NCBI RefSeq assembly: GCF_000940845.1 | Contig: NZ_CP010341.1 | Coordinates: 2,550,001-2,582,000 of the forward strand | Source of the DNA: Propionibacterium freudenreichii subsp. freudenreichii | GTDB lineage: Bacteria > Actinomycetota > Actinomycetes > Propionibacteriales > Propionibacteriaceae | Direction: 5' to 3' | Length of the DNA: 32,000 nt | Shown here: positions 7,733 through 31,983 of the stretch, one piece after another | Layout of the letters: each line of letters starts with the position of its first letter | Numbering within the stretch: the first letter of the stretch is position 1 | Program-made: the position numbers and the translations under genes | The notes under the pieces: generated by a model | Databases searched by the model: none | What the model saw: the letters and a program-made list of their open reading frames with translations, nothing else | Told to the model about the DNA's origin: nothing

Positions 7733-7783
7733 GGGCCACCAGGCCCCGCCACATCAGGTGTCCGAAAAACCAGGGTAGGCCCA
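7733..7783. repeat. Right copy of the perfect 51-bp inverted repeat
   Basis: gggccaccaggccccgccacatcaggtgtccgaaaaaccagggtaggccca. Identity with the left copy stops exactly at both repeat ends. Confidence 0.95.
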
Positions 7784-7821
7784 GTCGGTGGTCGGTCTGC
7801 TGTTGGTCCGGGAAAGAGCTT

Positions 7822-8025
7822 CAGTGTTGGTAGCGGCCTTGGCCGGACAGGGCGGTGTAGAGGGTCTGCCGCGACACTCCGAGATCCCGGGCGACCCTGG
7901 ATTTGGTCACCCCGTTGGCGATGCGCCGGCGGGCGGTGTCGATCTGGTCGGCCGACAGTTTGGGTCCCCGGTCGTAGACGCCGCGGGCTTTGGCCAGGGC
8001 GATGCCTTCGCGGATCGATCGCCGT
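7822..8025 (-). pseudogene. Serine recombinase (resolvase/invertase), C-terminal HTH domain only
   Basis: Translation RRSIREGIALAKARGVYDRGPKLSADQIDTARRRIANGVTKSRVARDLGVSRQTLYTALSG covers the E-helix end plus the HTH of Tn3-type resolvases. There is no start codon and no catalytic domain. The stop lies 38 bp from the right 51-bp repeat. Confidence 0.7.
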
Positions 8026-13429: not shown

Positions 13430-13497
13430 GGTCTTCCTCGTCCGTTGAGTGGTGGTGCTCTGTGGTGCTGGTGGGCGCGTGGTGCGAGGTTCTTGGC

Positions 13498-13803
13498 TCA
13501 GTGGTGATCGGCCCCGTGGTTCATCATCCGCATCATGAGCCACATCATCACTACGCAGCCGAGGGCGGGGATGACGGCGGCCATGACGCCGCCTGCGGCG
13601 AGGCTGGCACGACCTGTCCACAGGTATCCGGCCACGATGAGCAGCATCGGGGCACACATCAGCAGGTGCATCCAGTGGTGGCTCTTGCCGTGGCCTGTCA
13701 TCTTCGGGTCGTGCCGGTGCTGCACGGGCTCGAGTACCGGGTCGGCGGCGGGGCGGGGAGCGTCGCTGTCACTGCGGTTGAGCTGGGTGGGGTTTGTGTA
13801 CAT
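13498..13803 (-). CDS. Small His/Met-rich membrane protein (DUF2933-like)
   Basis: Strong RBS aaggag 7 nt before the ATG at 13803. There are two hydrophobic segments. [12 protein letters not shown] and the C-terminal [12 protein letters not shown] resemble the small proteins that accompany actinobacterial copper ATPases. Confidence 0.55.
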
Positions 13804-18297: not shown

Positions 18298-19113
18298 TCA
18301 CAGAGTCTGGCGAGCTCGCGTGTGGGCGAGGCGATAGGAGTGGGTGCCGGTCTCGATGATGGTGGCGTTGTAGGTGAGGCGGTCGACGATCGCTGCGCAC
18401 AGTCGTGGATCGGTGAAGGTGTCGGTCCAGGCGGAGAAGGACTGGTTGGAGGCGATCGCGATGGCGTTCTTCTCCTCCCGCTCGGTGAGGACCTGGAACA
18501 ACAGCTCGGCCCCGCGCCGGTCGAGCTCCATGTATCCCAGTTCGTCAATGACCAGGAGATCCACTCTTCCGTAGCGGTTGATGGTCTTGGTGAGTTGCTT
18601 CTCGTCAGCGGCCTCGACGAGCTCGTTCACCAGGCGGGTGGCGAGGGTGTAGCGGACGCGGTAGCCCTGCTCGGCGGCGGCGGTCCCGAGTGCGATGAGC
18701 AGGTGGGACTTGCCGGTGCCGGAGTCCCCGATCAGGCACAGCGGGTCGCCGCGGCGGATCCAGTCCCCGGTGGCGAGCTCGTTGATGGTGGCGGGGTTGA
18801 TGTTCGGGTTCGCGGTGAAGTCGAAGTCGGCCAGCCACTTCTCGCGCGGGAATCCGGCGCTCTTGATACGGCGCAGGGTAGAGCGCCGGTCACGGTCGTC
18901 GACCTCGGCCAGGAGCAGCTCGGCGAGGAAGCCCTGGTAGGTGAGTTGTTCCTTGGTGGCGGTGGTGATCGCCTCATCGACGACGGACCGGATGGTGGGC
19001 AGTCGTAGGCGGCGGCAGGCCTGGTCGATCGCGGCCTGGGCGGCTTGTTCGGTGAGGCCGTGACGACGACGAAGACCGCCCGGACGGGAGCTGCTGGTGT
19101 TGGTGGTGGTCAT
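18298..19113 (-). CDS. istB: IS21-family helper ATPase IstB
   Basis: Walker A GDSGTGKSHLL and Walker B LLVIDELGY. The ATG at 19113 overlaps the istA stop. Confidence 0.9.
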   Translation of the reverse strand: MTTTNTSSSRPGGLRRRHGLTEQAAQAAIDQACRRLRLPTIRSVVDEAITTATKEQLTYQGFLAELLLAEVDDRDRRSTLRRIKSAGFPREKWLADFDFTANPNINPATINELATGDWIRRGDPLCLIGDSGTGKSHLLIALGTAAAEQGYRVRYTLATRLVNELVEAADEKQLTKTINRYGRVDLLVIDELGYMELDRRGAELLFQVLTEREEKNAIAIASNQSFSAWTDTFTDPRLCAAIVDRLTYNATIIETGTHSYRLAHTRARQTL

Positions 19114-20771
19114 GGGGTTCCTGTCGGAGTGTGGTGATGGGCTTCGGCGGTGGCCGAAGCGGGGTCGGGTTGGCGACGTCGCAACAGCTCGTCGTAGGCG
19201 GTGACGCTGGGCAGGGGCCAGGTGTCGGCCGGTAGCGCGGCGATCAGCGAGTTCGAGTCGGTGTGGCGGCGCGGTGGCAGGTTCACCACGGTGCCGCCGC
19301 GCTGCGGCGCGGGCGCGGTGTGGCTGACGCTGTGGCGTCGGGCCTCGACGGCGACGACGTCGGCCGAGACGGCCCCGACGGACAGGGCGCTGGTGATCCC
19401 GGCGATCACCGCCTCGGCCGGCAGGGAGCGGTGGAGCAGGAGCACGTCGATCAACTCCTGGGTGCCCGCGACGTCGCCGCTGGTCTTGCGGGCGGCAGCC
19501 CAGAACGCGTCGTGGGCGGCGGTGAACGCCCCCGCGGCTCTGGCTTGGGCCAAGGCGGTCGAGCCGGGGAACGCGCCGGGCTTGTGGCGCAGAACCTCGA
19601 GGTAGTGGTCCAGCTCGACCCGGGTCACCCCACGCGTGCCGAGGCGGGGATGGGTGGCGACCACGGTGCGGCCCTCGAACACGACCACGCACGAGGCCCG
19701 CAGACTGACCCGGACGCGCTGCCCGATCAGGTGCGCCGGAACGGAGTACTTGACCATGCGCACGGTGATCAGGGCGGAGCGGTCGACGCGCGGGTGGAGG
19801 ATCAGGCCGGGGTCGAAGTCATCGGCCGGCAGCGGCGCCAGGTGGTCGAGTTCGGCGCGGTAGTCCTGCCCGATCGTGTTCGCATGGCCGGCGATCCGGC
19901 GGGTGTTGTCGTCGACTTCCCAGACACGGATCTGGTCGTTGAGTTCGTCCAGGCTGGCGACCTCGGGCATCGGGGTGAGGTGGTTGCGGCGGAACCAGCC
20001 GACCTCGCCCTCGACACCGCCCTTCTCATGGGCGCCGTCGATGCCGGGCTGGCAGTAGAACGCGTCGAAGCCGTAGTGGGACTTGAACAGAACCCAGCGT
20101 TCGTTCTCCTCGCGGAGCCGGTCACCGCCATGGATTACCTGCACGACCGCGGACGTGAGGTTGTCGTAGCGGATGTGGCGGGTCGGGATGCCGCCCAGGG
20201 CGTGGAAGGCCTCGATGTGGCCCTCGAGGAAGGCTTCCTGCCCTCCGGTCGGGTAGACGCGGTGGATCGCCTTGCCCGAGTGCGACAGGCGGTAGACGAA
20301 CATGTGGCGCTTGGTCTTGACGCCGTCGAGGATCACATACACCTCGCCGAAGTCGACCTCGGCCTCCGCGCCGGGGGCGTGGTCCTGCGGCACCATCGCC
20401 TCCACCCGCCGCCCGGCCTCCAGCTCGATCTGCGCCCGCCGGGTCCTGACATAGTCCCGCACCGTCGAGTAGGACAGGTCCGTGGCACCGTGCTCGTCAC
20501 GCAACCTGGCCAGGATCCTCGTGGCGGTGTGGCGCTGCTTGCGCGGGGCGGTCAGGTCGTAGAGCAGCATCTGGTCGATCGCCGGCTTGTACGGGTCCAG
20601 ACGTGGTGCGGACCGTACCGGGGTCTTGCGGGGCGGGGGTTCGGCTGCCGCGAGGGCCTGGCGAATGGTGCGGCGGTGCACCCCGTGCTTGCGCGCGAGT
20701 TCGCGGATGGACAGGCCATCGACTCGCGCGTCGTGGCGGATGTCGGCAAACAGTTGCACTCGTGACCCCAT
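19110..20771 (-). CDS. istA: IS21-family transposase IstA
   Basis: 553 aa. The N-terminal HTH reads LSIRELARKHGVHRRTIRQAL, followed by a DDE catalytic region. The organisation is typical of IS21. Confidence 0.9.
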   Translation of the reverse strand: MGSRVQLFADIRHDARVDGLSIRELARKHGVHRRTIRQALAAAEPPPRKTPVRSAPRLDPYKPAIDQMLLYDLTAPRKQRHTATRILARLRDEHGATDLSYSTVRDYVRTRRAQIELEAGRRVEAMVPQDHAPGAEAEVDFGEVYVILDGVKTKRHMFVYRLSHSGKAIHRVYPTGGQEAFLEGHIEAFHALGGIPTRHIRYDNLTSAVVQVIHGGDRLREENERWVLFKSHYGFDAFYCQPGIDGAHEKGGVEGEVGWFRRNHLTPMPEVASLDELNDQIRVWEVDDNTRRIAGHANTIGQDYRAELDHLAPLPADDFDPGLILHPRVDRSALITVRMVKYSVPAHLIGQRVRVSLRASCVVVFEGRTVVATHPRLGTRGVTRVELDHYLEVLRHKPGAFPGSTALAQARAAGAFTAAHDAFWAAARKTSGDVAGTQELIDVLLLHRSLPAEAVIAGITSALSVGAVSADVVAVEARRHSVSHTAPAPQRGGTVVNLPPRRHTDSNSLIAALPADTWPLPSVTAYDELLRRRQPDPASATAEAHHHTPTGTP

Positions 20772-20820
20772 CTCGGCCTCCTCGCCTCACACCAGTGGAT
20801 GGGGACCAGCGTGGAGGGGC

Positions 20821-20908
20821 GGGGCCAATTCAGACCGTCAACACCCCGGCAGGCTGCACGTGGGGCCGATTCAGGCCGTCACAACGGGGCCAAACCAAGC
20901 TGTCACAA
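20821..20908. repeat. Three 23-bp direct repeats at the IS21 terminus (multiple transposase-binding repeats)
   Basis: ggggccaattcagaccgtcaaca (20821-20843), ggggccgattcaggccgtcacaa (20862-20884) and ggggccaaaccaagctgtcacaa (20886-20908). Confidence 0.8.
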
Positions 20909-20944
20909 CCAGGCGCCGCCGGTGCGGCGCAGGAGGTAGGTCAT
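20908..20944 (-). pseudogene. First 12 codons of a DppB/OppB-type permease, cut off by the IS21 end
   Basis: The minus strand reads atg acc tac ctc ctg cgc cgc acc ggc ggc gcc tgg t, giving MTYLLRRTGGAW, the canonical N-terminus of these permeases. It starts 62 nt after the binding-protein stop and runs directly into the IS21 terminus. Confidence 0.6.
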
Positions 20945-20973
20945 GGTGTGATCTCGCAGGTCGTGAGGTAGGT

Positions 20974-21007
20974 CAGGGCGTGGTCCGGGGCAGGGCGTGG
21001 TCCGGGT
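20974..21007. repeat. 17-bp tandem duplication
   Basis: cagggcgtggtccgggg (20974-20990) is followed directly by cagggcgtggtccgggt (20991-21007). The second copy touches the binding-protein stop codon. Confidence 0.85.
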
Positions 21008-22659
21008 CAGTCGGTGAGCCAGGTGTCGTAGAAGCGGGGTCGACCCACGGACTCGGTGGCGAAGCCCTGGACGGCCGCGGTGAGCCCGTACACCTGCGGC
21101 TCCTCGAAGAGCGGCAGGATCAGCGCCTGCTCGGCCAGGTGCCGCTGGGCCGCGGCGGAGGCCTCGGCCCGCCCCTCGGCCTCCGGCACGGAGGCGATCC
21201 GGGCCAGCAGCTCGTCCAGCTCCGGGTCGCCGACACTGCCGTCGGGGTACCCGTTGAGCAGGGTGTTGCGGTTGTCTGAGGAGTACTGGGACTTCAGCAC
21301 GTCGTAGTCCGAGCGGCCCACCATCGAGTGGTACACCTGCACGGTGCCGGGCTCGCCCCGGGCGGCGTCCTGCGCGGCCTGGTCGCCGGGCAGCAGCTGC
21401 ACGTCAATGCCGAGCTCGGTGGGCTGCCCCTGGATCAGGGTGACCACCTCCCGGGAGCGGGGCTGCGGGAGGGCCTCGTTGAACGTGAGGGTCAGGGGCT
21501 TGCCGTCCTTGGTGCGGGTGCCGTCGGCCCCGGCGCTCCAACCGGCCTCCTCCAGCAGCGAGGCCGCCTTCTCGGGGTCGTGGACGTAGTGCTCGGAGGT
21601 GTCCACATAGCCCAGGGCGGTGGCGGCGAGCGCCCCGGTGGCCAGGGGATAGTTGTCCGTGAACAGGGTGTCCACGATGGCCTGGCGGTCGATCGCGGCG
21701 ATCAGCGCCTGGCGGGTGCGCAGGTCATCCGGGGCCGGGTCGCGGAAGCGGAAGCTCAGGCCGTTGTTGACGCCGTTGGTGGAAGCGGCGTGCAGGCTCA
21801 GCCCGTCGGCCGCGAACTGGGGGTCGTCGGGCGCCTCGATCTGTCGGGCGATGTGGGCCTGCCCGGAGGTGACGGTGCCCACCCGCACGCTGTCCTCGGC
21901 GGCGACCACGTAGTCGATGCCGTCCAGCAGGGCCCGGCCCTCGCGCTGGGCGGTGGCCGGCGGTTAGGCGTAGTCCTCGCGCACCGTGAGGGTGAGGCGG
22001 GTGCCGATCTCCTCCGCGTCGATCACGAAGGGGCCGGAGCCGATGATGTCGGCGGCGTTGCCAGGGCCGAACTCCTCGCCGGTGCGGTCCAGGGTGGCGT
22101 TGGAGAGCAGGCCGGAGTTGATGGTGGAGACGGCCTGGGCGAACCCGGGCGAGGGTGCGGAGAAGTGGAAGCGGACCGTGGTGGGGTCCACCACCTCGCC
22201 GCGGTCGTAGTTGTTGATCGCCTCGGAGACGGTCAGTGCCCGATCGGGGTCGCCCGCGCCGTACAGGTCGAAGTTCTTCACCACGTTCTCGGCGTCGAGG
22301 GGGGTGCCATCGGAGTAGGTGACGCCCTCACGCAGCGTAAAGGTGTACTCGGTGGCGTCCTCGTTGACCTCAGGCAGGGCCGTGGCGATCCACGGGTGCA
22401 GCTCGAGGGTCTCGGGGTCCTGGTACAGCAGGCGGTCGGTGATGTTGTTGACCACGCCGCCGTTGGGGTAGAAACCGGCCGCCGGCGGGTACAGCGTGCT
22501 CCAGGTCTGCGGCTCCAGGTATGTCAGGGTGCCGCCCTGCTGCGGTTCACCGGCCGCAGCGTTGTCGCCGCCGGTGCCGGAACCGCAGCCGGCCAGCGCC
22601 ATCAGGGCCGGGGTGCCGAGACCGAGCGCGAGTGCTGAGCGACGCGTGAGGGAGGACAT
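21007..22659 (-). pseudogene. ABC transporter substrate-binding lipoprotein, family 5 (peptide/nickel), interrupted by a single in-frame TAA
   Basis: ATG at 22659 preceded by aggag. The signal and lipobox read LGTPALMALAGCGSG. ORFs 21964..22734 and 21007..21909 are in the same frame and are separated only by TAA (complement of tta at 21964-21966). The read-through ...REDYA*PPATAQREGRALLDGIDYVVAAED is contiguous family-5 SBP sequence. Confidence 0.8.
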
Positions 22660-22680
22660 GGGAGGGGCTCCTGGAAGTGC

Positions 22681-22716
22681 GGGGGCAGTCCGGGCGGCGT
22701 GCCGCGGACTGCCCCC
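22681..22716 (-). other. GC-rich hairpin in the 5' leader of the binding-protein gene
   Basis: gggggcagtccg (22681-22692) pairs with cggactgccccc (22705-22716): a perfect 12-bp stem, 22-57 nt upstream of the 22659 start. Confidence 0.5.
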
Positions 22717-22824
22717 GTGCACCACAGGTCCCAAAGAATCGCTAATGGCGGTTCATGGTGTGACATGGGGGCTCCGGAGCTCACCGGGGCTCCTGGCCCG
22801 CGCACCAGCTGCACTGCACCAGCA

Positions 22825-22874
22825 AAGGACGATTACGTTCCAGGACCTCGCGATCGTGGAACGGAATCGTCCTT
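22825..22874. other. Long, comparatively AT-rich hairpin/palindrome
   Basis: aaggacgattacgttcca (22825-22842) pairs with tggaacggaatcgtcctt (22857-22874): 17/18 complementary with a 14-nt loop. Confidence 0.5.
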
Positions 22875-22895
22875 CTTGTGACTGGACAGCACGAA

Positions 22896-22933
22896 GGCCA
22901 GGGCACCTGCAACACGTCGCAGGCGCCCTGGCC
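22896..22933 (-). terminator. Probable intrinsic terminator of the PNPOx-like gene
   Basis: ggccagggcacctgc pairs with gcaggcgccctggcc: 14/15 bp with an 8-nt loop. It starts 38 nt downstream of the stop at 22971 on the minus strand. Confidence 0.45.
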
Positions 22934-22970
22934 TCTGTGGCCCCGTCGCGGGGGGGCGGTTACCCGAGCA

Positions 22971-23456
22971 TCACAGCTCCGTGGTCCCCGTCCCGCCGGG
23001 GGTGTCGCCGCCGGTGACCTTGGCCTTGAGGATCTGGGCCACACCTGCGACCTTGCCACCGGGCAGGCCCCAGTACTGTGCGGACTCACTGGTGACCAGC
23101 ACCAGGGCCAGGTTCGGATCGTCCACGCCGTCGGGGAAGTAGCTCTTGGCGGAGTCGTCCCACAGCTCGGCGATCTTGGCGCGGTCCTCGACGAACTTGG
23201 CCCTGCCCGCCACGGACAACCAGGATCCGGCCTCGGAGACGTTGAGGTTCACCTCGGGGCCCTGACGCAGGGCGTCGGCCTGATCGCCCTGCAGGCCCAC
23301 GAACAGCCACACATCAGCATCGTCGGTGACGTCCTGGACGGTCATGGGGTGGGACAGCAGCTTGCCGTCGGCGCGGGCGGTGGTCAGCATGACGATGCTG
23401 GTGCCGCGCAGCTTCTCGACGACGTCCTGCTGGGTGAAGTCCTGGTCGGTGCTCAC
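22971..23456 (-). CDS. Pyridoxamine 5'-phosphate oxidase-like / general stress protein 26 family protein
   Basis: GTG at 23456 preceded by ggagga; 161 aa. SIVMLTTARADGKLLSHPM...VWLFVG...LNVSEAGSWLSVAGRAKFVEDRAKIAELW fits the split-barrel PNPOx-like fold family. Confidence 0.65.
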   Translation of the reverse strand: MSTDQDFTQQDVVEKLRGTSIVMLTTARADGKLLSHPMTVQDVTDDADVWLFVGLQGDQADALRQGPEVNLNVSEAGSWLSVAGRAKFVEDRAKIAELWDDSAKSYFPDGVDDPNLALVLVTSESAQYWGLPGGKVAGVAQILKAKVTGGDTPGGTGTTEL

Positions 23457-23742
23457 GGTTCCTCCATCGGGTCGAGCGGGTGGTCGAACGGGGTGCGGGC
23501 CCCTGGGCCACACCTGGATGAGCGGGCGCGCCGACGTCGGGCGGCCGCGCCCGGTGATGCGTCGACCGTAGGCTCCGCACCTGCGACGGGCACCCAGGAA
23601 CCCGACCGACCGGTCCCGGGATGCCAGGCAGCTCGTCGCGCACTCCGGCGGCCACCAGCACCCTTCGGGACCGGATGCGGGTGCCACGCCCCCTCGACCA
23701 TTCGGTCACAGCAGGCCGTCCGTTCATGGGGCCTGCATGTTG

Positions 23743-23748
23743 TAGCGT
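23743..23748 (+). promoter_or_regulatory. Candidate -10 hexamer for a leaderless transcript of the three-gene operon
   Basis: TAGCGT fits the TANNNT pattern and ends 6 nt before the GTG at 23755. Confidence 0.3.
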
Positions 23749-23754
23749 GGCCAG

Positions 23755-24942
23755 GTGACCCACACCTCCGGCTCCCCGCAGCGGGAGCACACCAGCAGCA
23801 CGCCCGCGGATGACCGGCCGCCCGCCACCCCCACCGAGGCGGCCACCAGCGGACCCGACATCCCCGTCGGCCTCGACAACGGCCCGGAGGGCCCGGGCGT
23901 CTCCGCGGCGGGGTTCGCGTCCCCCGTGCCCGCGATCGTGGCCGGGATCAGCGAGGCCATCGGGAACACTCCCCTGATCCGTCTGGACTCCCTGTTCCCC
24001 GACTCCGGGGTGGAGATCCTGGCGAAGCTGGAGTCGGTGAACCCGGGCGGCTCCACCAAGGACCGGCCGGCGATGGGCATGGTGCGCGACGCCCTGCAGA
24101 CCGGGCGACTGGCCCCCGGCGGCACCGTGGTGGAGTCCTCCTCCGGCAACCTTGGCGTGGCCCTGGCCCGTGCCTGCAACGCCCACGACGTGCGGTTCGT
24201 GTGCGTGGTCGACGCCCGTACCAACGCCACCACCGTGCGCACCATCCAGGCGCTCGGCGGGGAGATCGACCTGGTGTCCGAGCCCGATCCAGCTACCGGC
24301 GACCTGCTCACCGCCCGCTTCAACCGGGTCAAGGAGCTGCTGGAGGAGATCCCCGATGCGGTGAACCTGTACCAGTACGGCAATCCCGCCAATCCCCGTG
24401 CCCACTACGACGGCACCATGCGGGAGATCGCCGAGGCCACCGGGCACCAGGTGGACGTGCTGATGGCGGCGGTGTCCACGACCGGAACCATCGGCGGCTG
24501 CTCCGCGTACATCCGCGACCACGACATGAGCACCCGCGCGATCGCGGTCGACGCGGTGGGCTCGGTTCTGTTCGGTGGCACCGCCGCGCCCCGCCCCCTG
24601 CCCGGCATGGGTGCGGGCGTGGTCACCGAGCTGTCCCGCCAGGTTCAACCCGATCAGGTGATCCGCGTGGAGGGCCTGGACTGCGTGGTGGGCGCCCGGC
24701 ACCTGGCACGCAGCGAGGGCATCCTGGCCGGGGGCTCCACCGGCGGCATCGTGCATGCCCTGGGCGGGCTGATCCCCAGCCTCGAGCCCGGCACCCGCGT
24801 GGTGTTCGTGGTGCACGACGGCGGCGTTCCCTACCTGGAGACCGTGTACGACGACCAGTGGGTGCGGGAGAACCTCGACGCCGACACGGACGCGATCGCG
24901 GAGGGGATCGAGCAGCTGCGCAGGACCGCCCGCCGTGGCTGA
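23755..24942 (+). CDS. Fold-type II PLP enzyme of the cysteine synthase family (SbnA / Y4xP-like beta-replacement enzyme)
   Basis: IGNTPLIRL, the PLP-lysine block NPGGSTKDRPA, SSSGNLGVALA and the STTGTIGG phosphate loop are present. The N-terminal ~57 residues are Pro/Thr/Ser-rich, so an alternative GTG start at 23926 is possible. Confidence 0.8.
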   Translation: MTHTSGSPQREHTSSTPADDRPPATPTEAATSGPDIPVGLDNGPEGPGVSAAGFASPVPAIVAGISEAIGNTPLIRLDSLFPDSGVEILAKLESVNPGGSTKDRPAMGMVRDALQTGRLAPGGTVVESSSGNLGVALARACNAHDVRFVCVVDARTNATTVRTIQALGGEIDLVSEPDPATGDLLTARFNRVKELLEEIPDAVNLYQYGNPANPRAHYDGTMREIAEATGHQVDVLMAAVSTTGTIGGCSAYIRDHDMSTRAIAVDAVGSVLFGGTAAPRPLPGMGAGVVTELSRQVQPDQVIRVEGLDCVVGARHLARSEGILAGGSTGGIVHALGGLIPSLEPGTRVVFVVHDGGVPYLETVYDDQWVRENLDADTDAIAEGIEQLRRTARRG

Positions 24943-26989
24943 GCAGCCCTCCGTCCGGGCCGGCACGGCCCATCCGGCCCGCAGCGACGGTGCTGCCCGC
25001 CCGATTCGCGACGACCGCACTGCACCGCCCATGGCAGCCGCTGAGACACCGCTTCGCCCGGCCGCCGATGCGCCGCTGCGGCTCGCCGTCGTCGGTGCCG
25101 GACCGAAGGCGCTGTACGCGCTGGAGGAACTGACCGCGCTGCTGGATGCTGCGGGCTCCGCCACGGCCACCGCCGACGACGCGGGAGCTGCGGCCTCCGA
25201 ATCGTCAGCAGCATCCGGCCTGATCGTGACGGTGATCGATCCTGTCGCCGTGCCGGGTACGGGCGCCGCCTACCACTCCGGCCAGCCGCACCACCTGCGG
25301 CTGAACGTGACCGCGGCGATCCTGGATGAGCCCGCCACCGGCGACTTCCCCGCGTACCCCAGTTGGGTGCAGGACCCGTACCCGCAGCTGGCCGACGAGC
25401 CGTACCCGCCGCGCGCGGTGGTCGGCGAGTACCTCGCCCAGCGCTGGCAGCAGATGATCCATGGTCTCTCCCGGCATGCCCGCGTGGAGCACGCCCGGGC
25501 CCGGGTGACGGACCTGCGGCGCGAGGGCAGCGCCTGGCATCTGACCACCGACGCTGCTCCCGCGGACGTCGGCCCGGTGGACGAGGTGCTGATCGCCACC
25601 GGTCACGCCGCTGGCCACCGGGGCGCCCTGGTGCACCACTGGAGTTCACCCCTCCCCCTGGTCCCGGCGGTGCTGCCCGCTGAGCGGATGCTCAGCGCCG
25701 AGCAGGTCCCACCCGGTTCCCGGGTCGCGGTGCGCGGCGGGGCGCTGACCTTCATCGACGCCTGCCTGACCCTCACCGAGGGCCGCGGCGGCACCTTCAC
25801 CGAGAGCACCGAGGTCGACGCGAGCGGCGGCACCGAGGCGGATGTCCCTGCCCGCCTGGTGCACCATCGCGGGCCGCACGAGCCGACCGTGATTCGGCCG
25901 ATCACCCGGCAGGGTCTGCTGCTGGATGCGAAGCCGGACCCGGGATCACCCCTGACCGGGGCCGGCGAGCGCGCCGTCGAGCAGGCCCGCGCCCGATTCA
26001 CCTCCGGCCAGGGCATGGGCCCGGACGCGGTGCTGGCGATCGTGGTCGATGCCGCCACCGCCATGCTCGAGGGGACACCCGCGCCCAAGAAGCACGCCAG
26101 TACCTCGGGACGGGATGCGCGCGACACCGTCGCTGGTTCTCGCGCGGCCGTCGAACACACGCTGAGCACCGGTGCGGAACCCGATCTGCCCCGCGGCGCG
26201 GGGCGCGCCGAGGCGGCGCTGCGTCGCAGTATCGAGACGGCCCAGGGCCACCGCTCGCCCGGTCCGGCCTGGGCGCTGGGTCGCGTGTGGCAGACCCTCT
26301 ACTCCCTGGTCTCCGCCGCCCTGCGCGGCAGCGACGCCCCCGAGGAGGAGTGGGCGCGCTTCCGGCAGGCCGCGCAGGTGCTGGAGCGGTTCGCCTTCGG
26401 CCCTCCGCTGGTCAACGCCCGCAAGCTGCTGGCGATGATCGACTCCGGCGCGGTGGACCTGTCCTGGATGGATGGTGGGACGGGCATCGACGGCAACAGC
26501 ATCCATGTCGCGCCCGTGACCGAGAGCTCCGACGCCACTGCCACCGGCCGGCATGTTGACGCCACTGCCACCGGCCGGCACGACGACGCACCGTCGGGCG
26601 GCGATGTCGACGTGGTGATCGACGCGGTGCTCACCCCGCCCGGTCTGCTGAACCTCACCGACGAGCTGGCGGGGTCGCTGCTGCACCGCGGCCTGGTGCA
26701 GGTGCGGCCCGGCAGGCGGGGGGCGATGATCGACGAGGCCGGCTCCCCCGTCGGCCGCGATGACGCGCCACTGGTCGCCCCCGACGGTCGGACCGTGGCC
26801 GGGCTCGCGCTGATCGGGCGGCCCACAGAGGACCATGTCATCGGCCACGACTCGCTGAACCGCCACCTGCACCACGAGGGCCGATGCTGGGCCCGACGGA
26901 TCGCGGACCGGGTTGCGGGCGTTGACGATGCCGCTCCCGCTGACGCAGCTGTTCCTGCCGCCCCCGCCCCCGCTGTCGCCCCCGAGTGA
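24935..26989 (+). CDS. FAD/NAD(P)-binding protein (PF13454-like), large and uncharacterised
   Basis: The dinucleotide-binding motif LRLAVVGAGPKALYALEEL sits near the N-terminus. GTG 24935 overlaps the upstream stop (GTGGCTGA). An alternative ATG lies at 25031. Confidence 0.6.
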   Translation: MAEQPSVRAGTAHPARSDGAARPIRDDRTAPPMAAAETPLRPAADAPLRLAVVGAGPKALYALEELTALLDAAGSATATADDAGAAASESSAASGLIVTVIDPVAVPGTGAAYHSGQPHHLRLNVTAAILDEPATGDFPAYPSWVQDPYPQLADEPYPPRAVVGEYLAQRWQQMIHGLSRHARVEHARARVTDLRREGSAWHLTTDAAPADVGPVDEVLIATGHAAGHRGALVHHWSSPLPLVPAVLPAERMLSAEQVPPGSRVAVRGGALTFIDACLTLTEGRGGTFTESTEVDASGGTEADVPARLVHHRGPHEPTVIRPITRQGLLLDAKPDPGSPLTGAGERAVEQARARFTSGQGMGPDAVLAIVVDAATAMLEGTPAPKKHASTSGRDARDTVAGSRAAVEHTLSTGAEPDLPRGAGRAEAALRRSIETAQGHRSPGPAWALGRVWQTLYSLVSAALRGSDAPEEEWARFRQAAQVLERFAFGPPLVNARKLLAMIDSGAVDLSWMDGGTGIDGNSIHVAPVTESSDATATGRHVDATATGRHDDAPSGGDVDVVIDAVLTPPGLLNLTDELAGSLLHRGLVQVRPGRRGAMIDEAGSPVGRDDAPLVAPDGRTVAGLALIGRPTEDHVIGHDSLNRHLHHEGRCWARRIADRVAGVDDAAPADAAVPAAPAPAVAPE
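26531..26584 (+). repeat. In-frame 27-bp tandem duplication inside the flavoprotein gene
   Basis: gacgccactgccaccggccggcatgtt is followed by gacgccactgccaccggccggcacgac (24/27 identical), encoding DATATGRHV then DATATGRHD. Confidence 0.9.
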
Positions 26990-28710
26990 GAGGACCTGCC
27001 GTGACCGAGGAACCCACCCTGCGCGAGGCATGCCAGGGAACCCCGCCGCTGTCGGCTCGTCTGGAGCCGTGGATGCAGGAGCTGCTGGCGGACCCTGCGA
27101 CCTGCAGCTCGCTGCTGGAGCGCTACGGAAGCCCGCTGAACGTGCACGACTTTTCCGCGCTGCCGCGCAACGCCGCAGAGCTCACGGAGGTGGCCGAGGG
27201 CTCCGGGGTGGACCTGCGGATCTTCGTGGCACGCAAGGCCAACAAGACCCTCGGCATGGTGCGTGCCGCGCATCGCGCCGGGCTGGGGGTCGACGTGGGC
27301 AGCGAGCGCGAGCTGGGCCAGGTGCTCGAGGCCGGTGTGCCGCCGCATGACGTGGTGGTCACCGCGGCCATCAAGCCCGATCCGGTGCTGCGCCTGGCCC
27401 TGGAGTCCCGCTCACTGCTGGTGCTGGACAACCTCGACGAGGTGGCCGCCTCCCGGAGGGTCGCCGAGCAGGTCACCGGCGCCCGGAGCGCGGAACCAGG
27501 TCGCCCCGCGGACGGGGCCTCTGGTGCCCCCGAGCCGTTCCCCGTGGCGCTGCGCCTCGCGCCCAAGCCCAGCGACCTGATCCCGCCCACCCGCTTCGGG
27601 GAGTCGGCCCGCGCCTGGCTCGAGCTGATCGACTCCGGCGGCCTGGGCGACCTGCTGCGGGTGGACGGTGTGCACTTCCACCTGCACGGCTATGACCCGA
27701 CCGCGCGCGCCACCGCCCTCGGGGAGGCGCTGGAGCTGATCGACGCGCTGCGCGAGCGCGGCCTGGCCCAGGATGGCGCGTTCGTGGACATCGGCGGCGG
27801 CATCCCGATGAGCTACTTGGACGATGCCGAGCAGTGGGACGCCTTCTGGCAGGCCCACGAGCGGCAGGCCCCGGAGTCGGGCCTCGGCGGGGGTGCTCGC
27901 GCGGCCGACGACGACCGGCCCGCGGCTGCCCCCGACGCCGGCGAGGACGCCCCCACCGCCCCGCTGACCTGGCGCCGGGAACCGCTGCGGCAGGTGTACC
28001 CCTACCACCAGCAGGTGATCCGCGGGCCCTGGCTGGAGCGGTTCCTGGGCCACGAGATCCGCCCGGGTGCCACTGCCGGGCAGGCCCTGCGAGAGCGCGG
28101 GGTGCAGCTGCGCTGCGAGCCGGGCCGCTCCATGATGGACGGTTGCGGCATGACGCTGGCGAGGGTCATCCAGCGCACCAGTGCCAGCGACGGCGTGCCC
28201 CTGGTGGGGCTGGAGATGAACCGCACCCAGTGCCGCTCCACCTCCGACGACTTCCTGGTGGACCCGATCCTGGTGCGCACCGGCACACGCGACGATGCCA
28301 CGGATCCGTCGGTCGCCGGTGCCGGGCAGAGCAGGGCGAGCGAACGGTTCGAGGGGTTCCTGGTGGGCGCCTACTGCATCGAGGCCGAGCTGATCCTGCG
28401 TCGGCGCCTCGCGTTCCCGCAGGGTGTGGCCGTGGGCGATGTGATCGCCCTGCCCAACACCGCCGGGTACCTGATGCACATCCTGGAGAGCGCGTCCCAC
28501 CAGATCCCCCTGGCCTCCAACGTGGAGCGCGTCGGCGGTGGGGAGGCAGGCGGATCCGGAGGTGACCACCCCAGCGCAGAGGTGGCGGACCGCAGCAGGA
28601 CGGGCGGCACGGACCACAGCAGCACCGCCGTCGAAGGCAGCGATCCCCGTCCTGATGTGCCCGGGTTCAAGCGCGACGGCATCGACCGGGTGCTGCCCAT
28701 CCGGGCCTGA
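26986..28710 (+). CDS. Type III (alanine racemase-fold) PLP-dependent decarboxylase-like enzyme, Y4yA-like
   Basis: YGSPLNVHD, the PLP-lysine block FVARKANKT, DIGGGIPMSY, CEPGRSMM and the GAYCIE blocks of Orn/DAP/Arg decarboxylase-type enzymes are present. There are long acidic or low-complexity inserts and a C-terminal tail. GTG 26986 overlaps the upstream stop; an alternative GTG at 27001 follows gagagga. Confidence 0.8.
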   Translation: MRGPAVTEEPTLREACQGTPPLSARLEPWMQELLADPATCSSLLERYGSPLNVHDFSALPRNAAELTEVAEGSGVDLRIFVARKANKTLGMVRAAHRAGLGVDVGSERELGQVLEAGVPPHDVVVTAAIKPDPVLRLALESRSLLVLDNLDEVAASRRVAEQVTGARSAEPGRPADGASGAPEPFPVALRLAPKPSDLIPPTRFGESARAWLELIDSGGLGDLLRVDGVHFHLHGYDPTARATALGEALELIDALRERGLAQDGAFVDIGGGIPMSYLDDAEQWDAFWQAHERQAPESGLGGGARAADDDRPAAAPDAGEDAPTAPLTWRREPLRQVYPYHQQVIRGPWLERFLGHEIRPGATAGQALRERGVQLRCEPGRSMMDGCGMTLARVIQRTSASDGVPLVGLEMNRTQCRSTSDDFLVDPILVRTGTRDDATDPSVAGAGQSRASERFEGFLVGAYCIEAELILRRRLAFPQGVAVGDVIALPNTAGYLMHILESASHQIPLASNVERVGGGEAGGSGGDHPSAEVADRSRTGGTDHSSTAVEGSDPRPDVPGFKRDGIDRVLPIRA

Positions 28711-28759
28711 TCCCCCGCTTGAGAGCTCTGTGAGCACGCCTACATGCCGGGAATCTTCG

Positions 28760-28779
28760 GCCCACCGGTCGAGGTGGGC
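28760..28779 (+). terminator. Small stem-loop after the operon
   Basis: gcccacc (28760-28766) pairs with ggtgggc (28773-28779) around a 6-nt loop, 50 nt after the stop. Confidence 0.3.
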
Positions 28780-28819
28780 ACAGATGCGTCCCGTCAGGTG
28801 CAGGTGCTGGCACGCACGG

Positions 28820-28940
28820 GGCGGCACGCGACCAGCTGACGGCGCGGCCATGCACGGGGCGGCCTCGCGCTCGGCGGCACGCGACCTGCTGACGGCGTTG
28901 CCAAGCGCGGGGCGGCACGCGAGCCGGTGGCGGCGCGGCC
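28820..28940. repeat. Three imperfect 30-bp direct repeats in non-coding DNA
   Basis: ggcggcacgcgaccagctgacggcgcggcc (28820-28849), ggcggcacgcgacctgctgacggcgttgcc (28873-28902) and ggcggcacgcgagccggtggcggcgcggcc (28911-28940). Pairwise identity to the first copy is 26-27/30. Start-to-start spacing is 53 and 38 bp. Confidence 0.8.
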
Positions 28941-28967
28941 TCGGTCTGACCCGACGCAACAGGAGTG

Positions 28968-30070
28968 CTAGCTGTACTTCCCCGGGAGGTTGTGAACGGG
29001 TGAGGTAGCGAAGACCTCCGGGCAGGATGTGGGTTACCACACTCACTCTCCTGACCACGGAGGTCTTCGTGACTCACGCTAACGCACCCTTGACACCGGA
29101 AGGGCGTCGTCGTCTTGCTGTTCTCGTCGTGGAACAGGGCTGGTCGTTGCGGCGGGCGGCGGAACGGTTCCAGTGCTCGCCCGCGACGGTGAAGCGGTGG
29201 GCCGACAGGTACCGGGCAGGGCTGCCGTTGATCGACCGTAGTTCGAGGCCCACCTCGTCACCGAACCGGCTTTCGCGTAAGACGGAGCATCGGATCGTCG
29301 CGTTGCGGTTCACTCGCCGGTGGGGTCCGCACCGGATCGCGTATCACCTGCGGTTGCACCGTTCCACGGTCGGTCGGGTGCTCGCCCGATACAAGATGCC
29401 GAAGCTGATCAACATCGACCAGGCCACCGGGCTGCCGGTTCGCCGCCCGAAGCCGAAACGGTACGAGGTCGCCGCGCCGGGCCAGCTCGTGCACGTAGAT
29501 ATCAAGAAACAAGGCCGGATCCCCGACGGCGGCGGGTGGCGTGCCCACGGTCGCGGATCCATGCAGGACCGTCACGCGGGAGTGGCCCGCGACAAGGCAG
29601 CCCGTGCCGGGGCAGCCGGCTCTCGCGGCTACCGGTATCTGCACCACGCCGTGGACGACCACTCCCGGATCGCGTACTCAGAGATCCTTGACGACGAGCG
29701 CAAAGAGACCGCAGCGGGGTTCTGGACCCGCGCGAACGCGTTCTTCGCAGGCCTGGGCGTCACAGTCACCGCGGTGATGACCGACAACGGTTCCTGCTAC
29801 CGGTCAGGCGCCTTCGCTGACGCGCTCGGCGACGAGGTGAAGCACAAGTGGACCCGGCCATACCGGCCGCAGACCAACGGCAAGGTCGAGCGGTTCAACC
29901 GGACCCTCGCCGTCGAGTGGGCCTACGCGAAGCCCTACGCCAGCGAAGCCGAGCGCGCCGCAGCCTACGAGACCTGGCTCCATCACTACAATCACCACAG
30001 ACCCCACACCGGGATCGGCGGCCAGACTCCCTCAGCCCGCGTTCACAACGTCACGGGGAAGTACAGCTAG
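28968..30070 (+). mobile_element. IS481-family insertion sequence, copy 2 (a different element from copy 1)
   Basis: IRs: ctgtacttccccgggaggttgtgaacggg (28972-) against the reverse complement of the right end, ctgtacttccccgtgacgttgtgaacgcg (-30066); 26/29 match. CTAG lies outside both ends (28968-28971 and 30067-30070). Confidence 0.85.
29069..30070 (+). CDS. IS481-family DDE transposase
   Basis: GTG at 29069 preceded by ggagg. DDE blocks are LVHVDIKK, VMTDNGSCY and TNGKVERF, with YNHHRPH at the C-terminus. It is only moderately similar to the copy-1 transposase. Confidence 0.9.
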   Translation: MTHANAPLTPEGRRRLAVLVVEQGWSLRRAAERFQCSPATVKRWADRYRAGLPLIDRSSRPTSSPNRLSRKTEHRIVALRFTRRWGPHRIAYHLRLHRSTVGRVLARYKMPKLINIDQATGLPVRRPKPKRYEVAAPGQLVHVDIKKQGRIPDGGGWRAHGRGSMQDRHAGVARDKAARAGAAGSRGYRYLHHAVDDHSRIAYSEILDDERKETAAGFWTRANAFFAGLGVTVTAVMTDNGSCYRSGAFADALGDEVKHKWTRPYRPQTNGKVERFNRTLAVEWAYAKPYASEAERAAAYETWLHHYNHHRPHTGIGGQTPSARVHNVTGKYS

Positions 30071-30073
30071 ACC

Positions 30074-31099
30074 CTAGAACGGTGCCTCGTCGCGTGTCGC
30101 CCACGGGTTCGGGGGCGACGGCGGCAAGGCTCCCCCGGGCAGCGGCAGGTTGGTGACGACGTAGAGGTTCAAGATGTCGTCGCGGTCCATGAACATGATC
30201 TGGCTCCGCTTGCTGGCATCGAGAGCGTTGCCGAGCCAGTTGCGAGCCGCCTTGGTGATCTCCCCGCCCGCCACGATGAAGGCGTGGTCAACCAAGACCC
30301 GGCGGTTGGTCTCAGGATCGAAGATCTCGTGTGCCAGCATCATGAGCGCTTGGTTGTGGATCTCGGCCATGTTGGCGTTGCCGGTCTTGGTGACGCCTGA
30401 GGCGTCGAGCTTGCCCTTCTTAGCCTGGATGCCGAAGTAGAGGATGTGCTGGGTCGGCAAGGTGTAGCGCATCCAGATGTCCTTGCCGTACTCCAGCGCC
30501 TTGTCCTTGTGCCCGGCTGCCGTGATGCGGTGGTAGCCCAACTGTCTGAACAGCGGGAGGAGCACTTCCTCGATGAGATCATCCTCGCTGCACTGGTCGA
30601 GGTAGGCCGTCAAGAGCTGCCGCCGCTCCAGTTCAGCCTTGCTGAAGGGGCGGTGCGGATTGGCGGCAAGGACAGTGACGGTCTGTGTGCCGACGTGGCG
30701 GAGGTAGCAGTGGTTGTCTTCGCCGTAGAACGCCTCGAAACCTTCGCGACCGAGTACCTCGTTGAGTTGTGCCAGCGCACGAGGACGGTCGGGGCCTTCG
30801 TTGAGCCGATCGGCTGGACTCATGAGTTGGTCAATGAGACGGCAGAAGACATCCGGGGGACGTGTGGGGCCGTCATGGGGTTCGGCCAGCATCTGTTCCA
30901 ACACGTCCGCAACCCAGCGATGGCGGGTCGAGCCGTCGTGGTGGAACTCGGTCTCCAACTCTTGAAAGAACTCGGTGATGTACATGCTGGAGCGATACGG
31001 GAAGTACTTGGCTTCGTCCTCGTTTTCGGCGTCGTCACGACCCACGTTGCCCACGATGAGTGACCCGAGGGCTTCGAGGTTGCGGCGACGGAACTTCAC
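30074..31099 (-). CDS. Two-domain protein: unknown N-terminal domain plus a C-terminal Mrr-like restriction endonuclease (PD-(D/E)xK) domain
   Basis: The C-terminal half follows the Mrr_cat layout: helix IEEVLLPLFRQLGY, then EYGKD207IW, then GIQ225AK227KG, then AFIVAGGEITKAARNWL. GTG start at 31099. The stop is 3 nt from the IS481 end. GC is lower than in neighbouring genes (34/60 in one sampled stretch). Confidence 0.6.
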   Translation of the reverse strand: MKFRRRNLEALGSLIVGNVGRDDAENEDEAKYFPYRSSMYITEFFQELETEFHHDGSTRHRWVADVLEQMLAEPHDGPTRPPDVFCRLIDQLMSPADRLNEGPDRPRALAQLNEVLGREGFEAFYGEDNHCYLRHVGTQTVTVLAANPHRPFSKAELERRQLLTAYLDQCSEDDLIEEVLLPLFRQLGYHRITAAGHKDKALEYGKDIWMRYTLPTQHILYFGIQAKKGKLDASGVTKTGNANMAEIHNQALMMLAHEIFDPETNRRVLVDHAFIVAGGEITKAARNWLGNALDASKRSQIMFMDRDDILNLYVVTNLPLPGGALPPSPPNPWATRDEAPF

Positions 31100-31221
31100 G
31101 GGACCATTGTTGCAAGCGGGACCGACAAACGACCGGACTCCGTGGGCTGCGGCTGCACCGTCTGCCCCGGCATGCGGTGCCGCATCGGCTGAGTGTCAGT
31201 GTCACGTGCTCGAATAGACCC

Positions 31222-31983
31222 ATGACTGTGGACGTGCGGCGCGCTGTTCTTGACCGCCTCGGCACTGGAGGTGCCTCGCGCTTTGGCCGCCCATACCTCG
31301 TGGCAACCCTTCACCGGGAAGTTGGCTGTTCCGAGACGGAAGTGTGGGAGGCCTTCTGGGGTCTGGTCGGTGAGGGACTGGTCTACCTCGACACCGCCGG
31401 CCAGGGATCAGGCACTGACAACTGGCAGTGGCACCTATCGACAGATGGCCGAAGGGTGGCTGAGGGCGGCTCCTGGGAGCCACGCGACCCCGACGGCTAC
31501 ATGGATCGGGTTCGACGAGACATCCCCGACTTGGACGAACTCGTGGAACTTTACCTGACAGAGGCGTTGCAGTCGTTCAACGGGCGATGCTACCTCGCCA
31601 CCTCCGTCATGCTTGGAGTCGCCGCAGAACGTGCCTTCCTGGTCATGGCTGCGTCCTACGCCGCCTCTACTGTCTCGGGCGCGCCGGCTATGGCCAAGGA
31701 GTTAGCGCGGCCGCGAAGCAACTACTTCGCCTTGTGGACGGAGTTCCGAAAGCGCATCGAGCCGATCCGCCAGGATCTGCCGGATGGGCTCGCCGACTCT
31801 CTCACGCTGGATGCCATCGCTGACCTGATCCGCCTGACCCGCAACGAGGTTGGCCACCCCACTGGCCGCCAGATTGACGAGGACACCGCTCGAGTTCACC
31901 TGACGATTGCTCCGACATACATGCGGAAGATGCGTGCGCTGACCGTCCACTTCGCCCAGAGGCCGGCGGAGGTGAACGAATGA
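31222..31983 (+). CDS. HEPN-like protein (Rx4H motif) with an unknown N-terminal domain
   Basis: ATG at 31222; 253 aa. The C-terminal alpha-helical region YLTEALQSFNGRCYLATSVMLGVAAERAF...LIRLTRNEVGHPTG contains R207-N-E-V-G-H212 (31840-31857), the HEPN Rx4-6H signature. The gene is transcribed divergently from the nuclease gene. Confidence 0.5.
   Translation: MTVDVRRAVLDRLGTGGASRFGRPYLVATLHREVGCSETEVWEAFWGLVGEGLVYLDTAGQGSGTDNWQWHLSTDGRRVAEGGSWEPRDPDGYMDRVRRDIPDLDELVELYLTEALQSFNGRCYLATSVMLGVAAERAFLVMAASYAASTVSGAPAMAKELARPRSNYFALWTEFRKRIEPIRQDLPDGLADSLTLDAIADLIRLTRNEVGHPTGRQIDEDTARVHLTIAPTYMRKMRALTVHFAQRPAEVNE

Follow-up and report, generated by a model that had tools for sequence, protein, structure and literature searches.

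What do three tightly packed genes in an actinobacterial lineage make, and from which precursors? We address this question for a 32,000-nucleotide stretch of Propionibacterium freudenreichii subsp. freudenreichii (assembly GCF_000940845.1, contig NZ_CP010341.1, positions 2,550,001 to 2,582,000 of the forward strand; hereafter the window), which carries a cassette encoding an SbnA-type enzyme dependent on pyridoxal 5′-phosphate (PLP), a flavoprotein and a Y4yA-type PLP decarboxylase. The trio is a genuine orphan pathway of three conserved genes and a variant of the theme in which an SbnA-like enzyme is paired with a decarboxylase. We put at about even the chance that it is a self-contained, mobile unit that makes a small N-oxygenated metabolite of the 2,3-diaminopropionate (Dap) or ethylenediamine type from central metabolites. 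An initial annotation, made from the sequence alone, had reported three co-oriented open reading frames (ORFs) on the plus strand (23755–24942, 24935–26989 and 26986–28710); these lie where it placed them, and its three family assignments proved right in Pfam, NCBIfam, profile and fold comparisons. The genes are as follows.

23755–24942, plus strand: gene 1, SbnA-type fold-II PLP enzyme (395 amino acids; PF00291, TIGR03945; first ~60 amino acids of low complexity)
24935–26989, plus strand: gene 2, putative FzmM/CreE/PcxL-type class B flavin N-monooxygenase (684 amino acids; PF13454, homology to 8cp2)
27001–28710, plus strand: gene 3, Y4yA-family type III PLP decarboxylase (569 amino acids from GTG 27001, or 574 amino acids from GTG 26986; PF02784)

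We surveyed relatives of the flavoprotein in one genome per GTDB species, which gave 178 stretches, and inspected the best 80 loci. The SbnA-type, flavoprotein and Y4yA-type genes occur in this order and on one strand in 74 of the 80 (77 when three loci whose contig stops beyond the second gene are counted), and the trio is thus syntenic elsewhere. Stop/start overlaps of 4 nucleotides (nt) predominate at the gene junctions across loci. Actinomycetota hosts include Brachybacterium, Microbacterium, Kocuria, Arthrobacter and relatives, Corynebacterium, Hoyosella, many Propionibacteriaceae, Gaiellales and Solirubrobacterales. Other hosts belong to the Planctomycetota (a Rhodopirellula metagenome-assembled genome) and the Alphaproteobacteria, and the trio is also found on plasmids of Tsukamurella, Sulfitobacter and Chondrinema (Bacteroidota). 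The three genes are under purifying selection, with ratios of nonsynonymous to synonymous substitution rates (Ka/Ks) of 0.2–0.6 against orthologues. Flavoprotein and decarboxylase are fused in a single ORF in Brachybacterium tyrofermentans, Kocuria, Corynebacterium and Propioniciclava, and database proteins that contain both PF13454 and PF02784 also exist; this argues for neighbouring steps. A candidate triple fusion in Micropruina (L041, 1539 amino acids) was rejected because its SbnA part is out of frame; the other two parts are fused, with an ambiguous base at the junction.

Does the trio need further genes? All-against-all clustering of flanking ORFs found no fourth conserved gene beyond genus-level synteny, and Pfam searches of 139 immediate neighbours revealed no conserved family, the commonest being PNPOx-like (5 times) and MFS (four times). 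None of the seven very large neighbours is a non-ribosomal peptide synthetase, a polyketide synthase or a synthetase of the NIS siderophore type; one has no family match, and the others, unrelated proteins of a housekeeping kind, comprise a DNA-repair-type ATPase (DUF3686), an ABC/FtsX transporter, PutA, a circularly permuted ATP-grasp protein, a GH38 mannosidase and a UvrA-like protein. Within the window, too, neither a synthetase nor an exporter adjoins the trio, as had been noted at the outset. Because the three genes form an isolated set in nearly all genomes and have neither a synthetase or exporter gene nor an iron or zinc box conserved beside them, the cassette is self-contained and is not a truncated siderophore cluster. 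The initial annotation had offered both descriptions, and the neighbourhood comparison, in which neither IucA/IucC nor MFS genes are conserved, retains the former and removes the latter.

The product of gene 1 matches PF00291 (E = 1.3e-59) and scores 361.3 bits on the SbnA equivalog model, NCBIfam TIGR03945, above its cutoff of 349.95 bits. The cysKM, CysK and CysM models give it 219, 199.6 and 169.8 bits against cutoffs of 344–394 bits, and it also falls far under the cutoffs for cystathionine beta-synthase and cysteate synthase; these scores uphold the SbnA reading of the initial annotation and place the enzyme apart from CysK and CysM. Its closest match in the PDB is SbnA of Staphylococcus aureus (5d84, 237.6 bits), followed by an O-acetylserine lyase at 165.7 bits. 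K102, R188, Y208 and S241 align with K47, R132, Y152 and S185 of SbnA, in which Arg132, Tyr152 and Ser185 are the reported O-phosphoserine-selectivity residues (PMC12414870). Among trio-linked homologues, the Arg, Tyr and Ser of this triad are kept in 78/78, 78/78 and 75/78, respectively. First enzymes of the trio type are 36–41% identical to S. aureus SbnA, whereas the cysteine-synthase-family enzymes of clusters that contain an ornithine cyclodeaminase or an octopine/nopaline dehydrogenase (below) are 28–31% identical to it and all carry Gly in place of the Ser. The Tyr is replaced by His or Ser in the enzymes of Streptomyces, Aureimonas, Sinorhizobium and Serratia and is kept in that of Mycobacterium avium. 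Gene 1 therefore encodes a bona fide SbnA-type enzyme, which is predicted to carry out O-phosphoserine-dependent beta-replacement.

The flavoprotein is less easily placed. PF13454 is its only Pfam match (E = 1.4e-24), and a single-sequence search of the PDB returned none; the relationship to FzmM was revealed only by a family profile. This profile, built from 13–17 family members, has exactly one strong match in the PDB (8cp2/8cp5, E = 2.8e-50), the L-aspartate N-hydroxylase of Streptomyces sp. V2, which is an FzmM homologue. When an AlphaFold (AF2) model of the flavoprotein (mean pLDDT 80.7, pTM 0.82) was compared by Foldseek, 8cp2/8cp5 again came first (E = 6e-29 to 4e-28, TM 0.60–0.71), followed by DiatB, the ornithine/lysine N-hydroxylases PvdA, KtzI, SidA, NbtG and DesB, and flavin-containing and Baeyer-Villiger monooxygenases. 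Identity to FzmM is ~22%. The GxGxxA motif for flavin adenine dinucleotide (FAD), G54-A-G56-P-K-A59, aligns with that of FzmM, and RGGALTFID...TEGRGG aligns with RGLGLNFFD...TTGRGG of FzmM (pattern RGxxLxFxD...TxGRGG); in our reading, this segment would be the second (NADP) dinucleotide-binding motif. Asn62 of FzmM, which lies over the flavin C4a, corresponds to N124 of the flavoprotein and is invariant in 17 family members, and Trp51, Arg13 and Arg266 of FzmM pair with Y113, K58 and K333.

Within the class B N-hydroxylating monooxygenases, FzmM, CreE and PcxL make up a subgroup that uses NADPH and O2 to hydroxylate nitrogen two or three times in succession; FzmM and CreE thereby turn aspartate into nitrosuccinate, and PcxL makes an oxime from 2-aminoethylphosphonate (PMC10404684). 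The flavoprotein has the PF13454 domain, a class B fold of three domains, the motifs for NADPH and FAD and the catalytic Asn in common with these enzymes. Judged from alignment and model, it is best read as a class B N-oxygenase of the NADPH/O2 type and not as an SbnB-like dehydrogenase, and by analogy with FzmM, CreE and PcxL it probably oxygenates nitrogen over several rounds. FzmM and CreE work with a nitrosuccinate lyase (CreD/FzmL), whereas the partners in the cassette are two PLP enzymes, and no gene of the lyase family occurs among the conserved neighbours of the trio. Since its partners are PLP enzymes, the substrate of the flavoprotein is probably not free aspartate. The suggestion that the flavoprotein replaces SbnB is apt as far as the architectural slot is concerned, the one that belongs to a cyclodeaminase or opine dehydrogenase in related clusters; as a generic stand-in for a dehydrogenase it does not hold, the protein being an N-monooxygenase homologue. 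No gene of the ornithine cyclodeaminase family that could serve as an SbnB partner was found in the window or beside the trio in the surveyed loci. Because of the homology to FzmM, CreE and PcxL, simple oxidative release of Dap is not the default chemistry.

The product of gene 3 matches PF02784 (E = 7.6e-18), the N-terminal barrel of type III PLP decarboxylases. The C-terminal beta-barrel, PF00278, is not reported by Pfam at E ≤ 0.01, and the profile alignment with diaminopimelate decarboxylase continues into this region. A profile of ten members finds diaminopimelate decarboxylases in the PDB (E = 5e-32), and also D-ornithine/lysine decarboxylase, BtrK and N-citrylornithine decarboxylase. 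Invariant residues are K84 (ARKANK), H230/H232 (HxH), G270–272 (DIGGG, phosphate loop), E378–R381 (EPGR), the catalytic C464 and Y495 ((A)GY). RefSeq names the Sulfitobacter and Chondrinema orthologues 'Y4yA family PLP-dependent enzyme', and the window protein is ~29–31% identical to rhizobial Y4yA. Gene 3 thus encodes a Y4yA-type (type III PLP) decarboxylase with complete catalytic motifs. The catalytic blocks of the trio are intact, as had been claimed: the PLP lysines K102 (STKDR) and K84 (ARKANK) and the GxGxxA motif are all found.

Which known systems does this arrangement resemble? The staphyloferrin B module of S. aureus (SbnA, SbnB and SbnH) shares a genuine SbnA-type first enzyme and a type III PLP decarboxylase as third enzyme, SbnH decarboxylating the Dap end of N-substituted Dap. 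It differs in having SbnB (ornithine cyclodeaminase family), IucA/IucC, an exporter and receptor and an iron box, none of which is present at the trio, where an FzmM-type flavin N-monooxygenase lies between the two PLP enzymes. A second type of relative is found in M. avium, Streptomyces and Aureimonas plasmid loci, which encode a cysteine-synthase-family protein, an ornithine cyclodeaminase, Y4yA and a MATE exporter. This gene set matches that of the aes clusters. Like the cassette, aes-type clusters are compact operons of a cysteine-synthase-family enzyme, a Y4yA decarboxylase and one oxidoreductase, linked to ethylenediamine-type units; unlike it, they have an ornithine cyclodeaminase, a MATE exporter and a first enzyme of another subgroup, so that the cassette has two of the four components. 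According to the passages of PMC10702961 and PMC9248904 that cite Spohn et al. 2016 and 2018, aes clusters give rise to the aminopolycarboxylic-acid metallophores EDDS and EDHA. On the M. avium plasmid pP7a (L090, 1–8750) the aes-like cluster has genes for a multicopper oxidase and a metal-sensitive regulator as neighbours, which echoes the copper-resistance context of the window.

A third relative is the region y4yB-y4yA-y4xP-y4xO-y4xN-y4xM of Sinorhizobium fredii symbiotic plasmids, which lies between nopX and nopL (PMC3973906). On the Sinorhizobium plasmid pSS05631a (L083, 6905–13510) and a Serratia plasmid (L093), genes for Y4yA, a cysteine-synthase-family enzyme and an enzyme of the octopine/nopaline dehydrogenase family follow one another in this order, together with IucA/IucC and MFS genes. 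In both, as in the cassette, the Y4yA decarboxylase adjoins a cysteine-synthase-family enzyme and an oxidoreductase; the rhizobial region differs in that the oxidoreductase is of the octopine/nopaline dehydrogenase family rather than PF13454 and that IucA/IucC and MFS genes are present. The initial annotation had placed the three families of the trio together on the NGR234 symbiotic plasmid, correctly for the decarboxylase and the cysteine-synthase family and mistakenly for a flavoprotein at y4xO, which belongs to the octopine/nopaline dehydrogenase family; tblastn with the flavoprotein found no Sinorhizobium plasmid. We speculate that the rhizobial y4yA/y4xP/y4xO/y4xN/y4xM set would fit an opine-type, ethylenediamine-containing carboxylate siderophore such as rhizobactin. 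Across these systems, the PLP beta-replacement enzyme and the Y4yA decarboxylase are the constant pair, and the oxidoreductase slot varies between a cyclodeaminase, an opine dehydrogenase and an N-monooxygenase.

How might the three enzymes of the cassette act together? We hypothesize that the SbnA-type enzyme, whose family is established, would form a PLP-aminoacrylate from O-phospho-L-serine. Because the SbnA signature is conserved, the enzyme would then add the nitrogen of an amino acid, most likely L-glutamate as in SbnA, to give the N-(2-amino-2-carboxyethyl) adduct (ACEGA). The Y4yA-type decarboxylase would strip the alpha-carboxylate at the Dap-like end to leave an N-(2-aminoethyl) amino acid, a step modelled on relatives of the SbnH and AesC type that act on N-substituted Dap. 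Finally, the FzmM/PcxL-type monooxygenase would oxygenate the freed primary amine, possibly in several rounds, to a hydroxylamine, an oxime or a nitro group. We place decarboxylation before N-oxygenation because all characterised relatives of the flavoprotein oxidise primary amines, one of them on a 2-aminoethyl compound, and because of the fusions. In a close variant, the monooxygenase would act first, on the secondary amine of ACEGA, to give an N-hydroxy compound or nitrone; hydrolysis of the nitrone would release 2-oxoglutarate, and the resulting N-hydroxy-Dap would then be decarboxylated. The product may be a small chelator or a reactive N–O metabolite. A bolder version, to which we give somewhat less than even credence, is that the cassette represents an undescribed route to an N–O-functionalised C2-diamine or Dap metabolite, in which a multi-round FzmM-type N-oxygenase replaces the cyclodeaminase or opine-dehydrogenase step known from aminopolycarboxylate metallophore pathways, and that this self-sufficient route spreads on plasmids and metal-resistance islands in at least four phyla. 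Its product, such as N-[2-(hydroxyamino)ethyl]glutamate, the corresponding oxime or nitro compound, or N-hydroxy-ethylenediamine, would act as a new small chelator or reactive nitrogen donor.

Several observations weigh against this N-oxygenating pathway. The order of the steps is inferred, and so are the nucleophile and how far the product is oxidised. Residues 2–274 and 445–534 of 8cp2 alone aligned with the flavoprotein, and the aspartate-binding helix Arg409–416 lies outside them; because this region of FzmM cannot be aligned, the substrate of the flavoprotein is unconstrained. We take the whole aspartate-binding cluster of FzmM to consist of Arg276, Arg409–416, Asn413 and Arg577. The flavoprotein stands alone in 3 of the 80 loci (L037, L050 and L077), the neighbourhoods of which are uninformative, as are those of distant homologues (25–28% identity) on Pseudosulfitobacter and Roseibium plasmids. 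Corynebacterium neomassiliense (L062, 6874–11174) has an intact fused flavoprotein–decarboxylase ORF of 1063 amino acids and an SbnA gene reduced to a C-terminal remnant (7648–7986), which could be decay or the use of the last two steps alone; the remnant sits behind a gene for a Crp-like regulator. A metallophore role gains no support, as no exporter or receptor is conserved beside the trio in the surveyed loci, and neither does iron or zinc control, as the 80 upstream regions scanned contain no IdeR- or Zur-like box. Literature searches found no paper describing the cassette, a further reason for caution; the label of orphan pathway stands. Moreover, a canonical SbnA signature would ordinarily lead one to expect SbnB as partner and L-Dap in free form, and this keeps alive the model of the initial annotation, in which SbnA-type chemistry gives ACEGA, the flavoprotein releases L-2,3-diaminopropionate and 2-oxoglutarate, and the decarboxylase yields ethylenediamine, with no N–O group in the product. 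That gene 1 keeps this signature, unlike the Aes- and y4xP-type enzymes, that the flavoprotein occupies the slot of an SbnB-like ornithine cyclodeaminase and that flavoprotein–decarboxylase fusions suit consecutive steps all speak for such a route. We nevertheless judge it unlikely, given that the flavoprotein is a class B NADPH/O2 monooxygenase akin to N-hydroxylases rather than a dehydrogenase or oxidase, and that C–N cleavage would require N-hydroxylation followed by dehydration and hydrolysis. We know of no precedent for that sequence in the flavoprotein subfamily, nor is free ethylenediamine, to our knowledge, an established bacterial end product.

If instead the monooxygenase came first, it would N-hydroxylate a free amino acid or amine, the SbnA-type enzyme would add the resulting hydroxylamine through N or O, and the decarboxylase would act last, an order that resembles the logic of O-ureidoserine and valanimycin biosynthesis. 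FzmM and CreE do use free aspartate, and it is established chemistry that hydroxylamines are good nucleophiles for PLP beta-replacement enzymes; however, the recurrent flavoprotein–decarboxylase fusions suggest adjacent steps, which this order does not provide, and the SbnA triad is the same as in the glutamate-using enzyme, so that we find this scheme rather improbable. A different possibility would suit the hosts, many of which are halotolerant or marine (Brachybacterium, Kocuria, Corynebacterium halotolerans, Zhihengliuella salsuginis, Sulfitobacter and Rhodopirellula): the first enzyme could use O-phosphoserine to make cysteine or an S-substituted cysteine, which could be converted by the decarboxylase and the flavoprotein, acting as an S-oxygenase, to hypotaurine or taurine as a compatible solute. 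Class B flavin monooxygenases are generally able to oxygenate sulfur, and a missing exporter suits an intracellular solute. Yet gene 1 passes the SbnA cutoff and falls far under those of CysK, CysM and cysteate synthase, the characterised close relatives of the flavoprotein are all N-oxygenases, and the solved type III matches of the decarboxylase act on diaminopimelate, ornithine/lysine, arginine and N-acylated amino acids, with no cysteine or cysteine-sulfinate decarboxylase among them; a sulfur route is very unlikely on these grounds. We attach least weight of all, and hardly any, to the idea that insertion sequences (ISs) severed the trio from a larger siderophore cluster, of the staphyloferrin B or aminopolycarboxylate type, and left it as a decayed, non-functional remnant. 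IS21 and IS481 elements do flank the locus, and the adjacent solute-binding-protein gene has an in-frame stop, but the trio stands alone, without synthetase or exporter, in 74 of 80 unrelated contexts, its catalytic residues are all intact and its Ka/Ks is below 1.

The following features adjoin the cassette.

23743–23748, plus strand: −10-like TAGCGT box, 6 nt before the GTG start at 23755
23694–23707, no strand: palindromic motif CGACC(A/G)TTCGGT (CGACCGTTCGGT), candidate operator of the cassette
22971–23687, minus strand: gene for a PNPOx-like split-barrel protein (flavin/F420-type; PF16242, E = 1.8e-38), divergent from the trio
28968–30070, plus strand: IS481-family insertion sequence, which bounds the cassette downstream and lies outside the pathway

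GC contents at third codon positions of 0.93, 0.86 and 0.90 for genes 1, 2 and 3 are typical of genuine genes in this genome, and local GC across the high-GC window is 0.62–0.74. Overlapping stop and start signals had been described at both junctions. The first is present as GTGGCTGA at 24935–24942, preceded by AGGA. At the second, GTGA exists at 26986–26989, but the 4-nt overlap for gene 3 does not follow from it. A start at GTG 27001 is more likely, because a Shine–Dalgarno-like GAGAGGA lies 5 nt upstream (26989–26995), the N terminus of the Microbacterium orthologue fits and near-identical contigs carry gene calls of 569 amino acids; this would leave an 11-nt gap to gene 2. Whichever start applies, the trio is packed as a single operon. 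The earlier suggestion that gene 1 is leaderless, on the strength of TAGCGT 6 nt before its GTG, is backed by comparable TANNNT boxes: such a box lies 6–7 nt ahead of a conserved GTGACC start in the window and in the Brachybacterium loci L008, L012, L014, L017 and L018, the rest of the intergenic region having diverged. Because this spacing is kept while the surrounding DNA has changed, we predict a leaderless transcript. The core of the palindrome is invariant in 11 otherwise divergent Brachybacterium upstream regions (the window, L007–L012, L014 and L016–L018), is mostly the sole copy per 17-kb locus and is absent outside Brachybacterium, making it a candidate operator for the cassette. Scans of the locus for E. 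coli-type promoters and terminators found none, and an Rfam scan of the whole window found no RNA element.

Low-complexity extensions had been attributed to the two PLP enzymes; they are real, but the flavoprotein has them too. In the flavoprotein, segments 1–41, 82–93, 386–397, 530–554 and 665–684 all have pLDDT <50, and the decarboxylase has three internal low-complexity insertions and a C-terminal one. The segments are rich in Pro, Ala, Gly, Ser and Thr and are missing from orthologues in other genera, in which the three proteins measure ~330–360, 495–560 and 457–475 amino acids against 395, 684 and 574 in the window. An in-frame 27-nt tandem duplication at 26530–26589 (DATATGRH twice), in a disordered loop of the flavoprotein, is present as one copy in the Brachybacterium muris orthologue and is thus polymorphic. 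The low-complexity segments are lineage-specific decoration, not catalytic features.

The cassette sits between an IS21 element upstream and an IS481 element downstream, in the following surroundings.

21–1163 and 13979–15457: multicopper oxidases (copper-resistance-type genes)
3588–4640, plus strand: second IS481-family element
11093–13657: heavy-metal P-type ATPase
15493–16632: sensor kinase
18298–20771, minus strand: IS21 element (istA and istB)
21007–22734, minus strand: family-5 solute-binding-protein gene, split by an in-frame stop at 21964–21966 (...REDYA*PPATAQ...)

Downstream, the locus ends as first described, in repeats and an IS481: three degenerate direct repeats of ~53 nt (core GGGGCGGCACGCGACCNGCTGACGGCG) occupy 28803–28946, after the stop codon of gene 3 and ahead of the IS481 element with its left inverted repeat. 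The transposase of this element scores 345 bits on NF033577 (cutoff 224), and its 31-nt terminal inverted repeats, 94% complementary, lie at 28968–28998 and 30040–30070. Beyond it, two ORFs of more than 300 amino acids (30074–31099, minus strand; 31060–31983, plus strand) have no Pfam or NCBIfam match and lower GC (0.63). Upstream, the family-5 solute-binding-protein gene is likely a pseudogene; the fragment abuts IS21 in the window and is missing from near-identical contigs (L085 and L086), in which IS21 directly adjoins the PNPOx-like gene. The latter accompanies the trio beside IS21 in near-identical contigs; in 11 Brachybacterium loci an orthologue lies no more than 8 kb from the trio, and other genera lack it. 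Its product is weakly similar to F420-dependent PPOX-class oxidoreductases, and the gene is a possible lineage-specific accessory of the cassette. In Luteococcus (L050), a true PdxH-type PNP oxidase lies upstream of the stand-alone flavoprotein, and such genes may connect the cassette with the metabolism of flavin or PLP.

The three window proteins are 99% identical to those on a contig of Brachybacterium nesterenkovii CIP104813 (L003), and near-identical copies of the cassette elsewhere adjoin the same IS21 and arsenic-resistance genes (arsR-like, arsD and arsA). Given the IS elements, the copper-resistance-type genes and these arsenic-resistance neighbours, the cassette is therefore carried on a mosaic, mobile, metal-resistance-rich island. 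Megablast of 20800–29000 against PLSDB found no match, and the island thus corresponds to no known plasmid. Some Brachybacterium have two diverged copies of the cassette, with flavoprotein identity of ~50–60% (sp. AOP43-C2-M15, L015 and L019; B. muris, P0003 and P0007). The window copy belongs to an IS-flanked clade common to Microbacterium, which suggests that this clade is a horizontally spread second copy.

If the N-oxygenating pathway proposed here is correct, it would extend the multi-round N-oxygenases of the small FzmM/CreE/PcxL family to a new class of substrates, and the oxidoreductase slot of SbnA/decarboxylase modules, from staphyloferrin B to EDDS/EDHA and the rhizobial y4x region, would be interchangeable. 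At ~5 kb and with no need for carrier proteins, the cassette is directly testable by heterologous expression and in vitro reconstitution. Bacteria of skin, cheese, sea and soil would then share the capacity to make an N–O-bearing small molecule from phosphoserine and glutamate.

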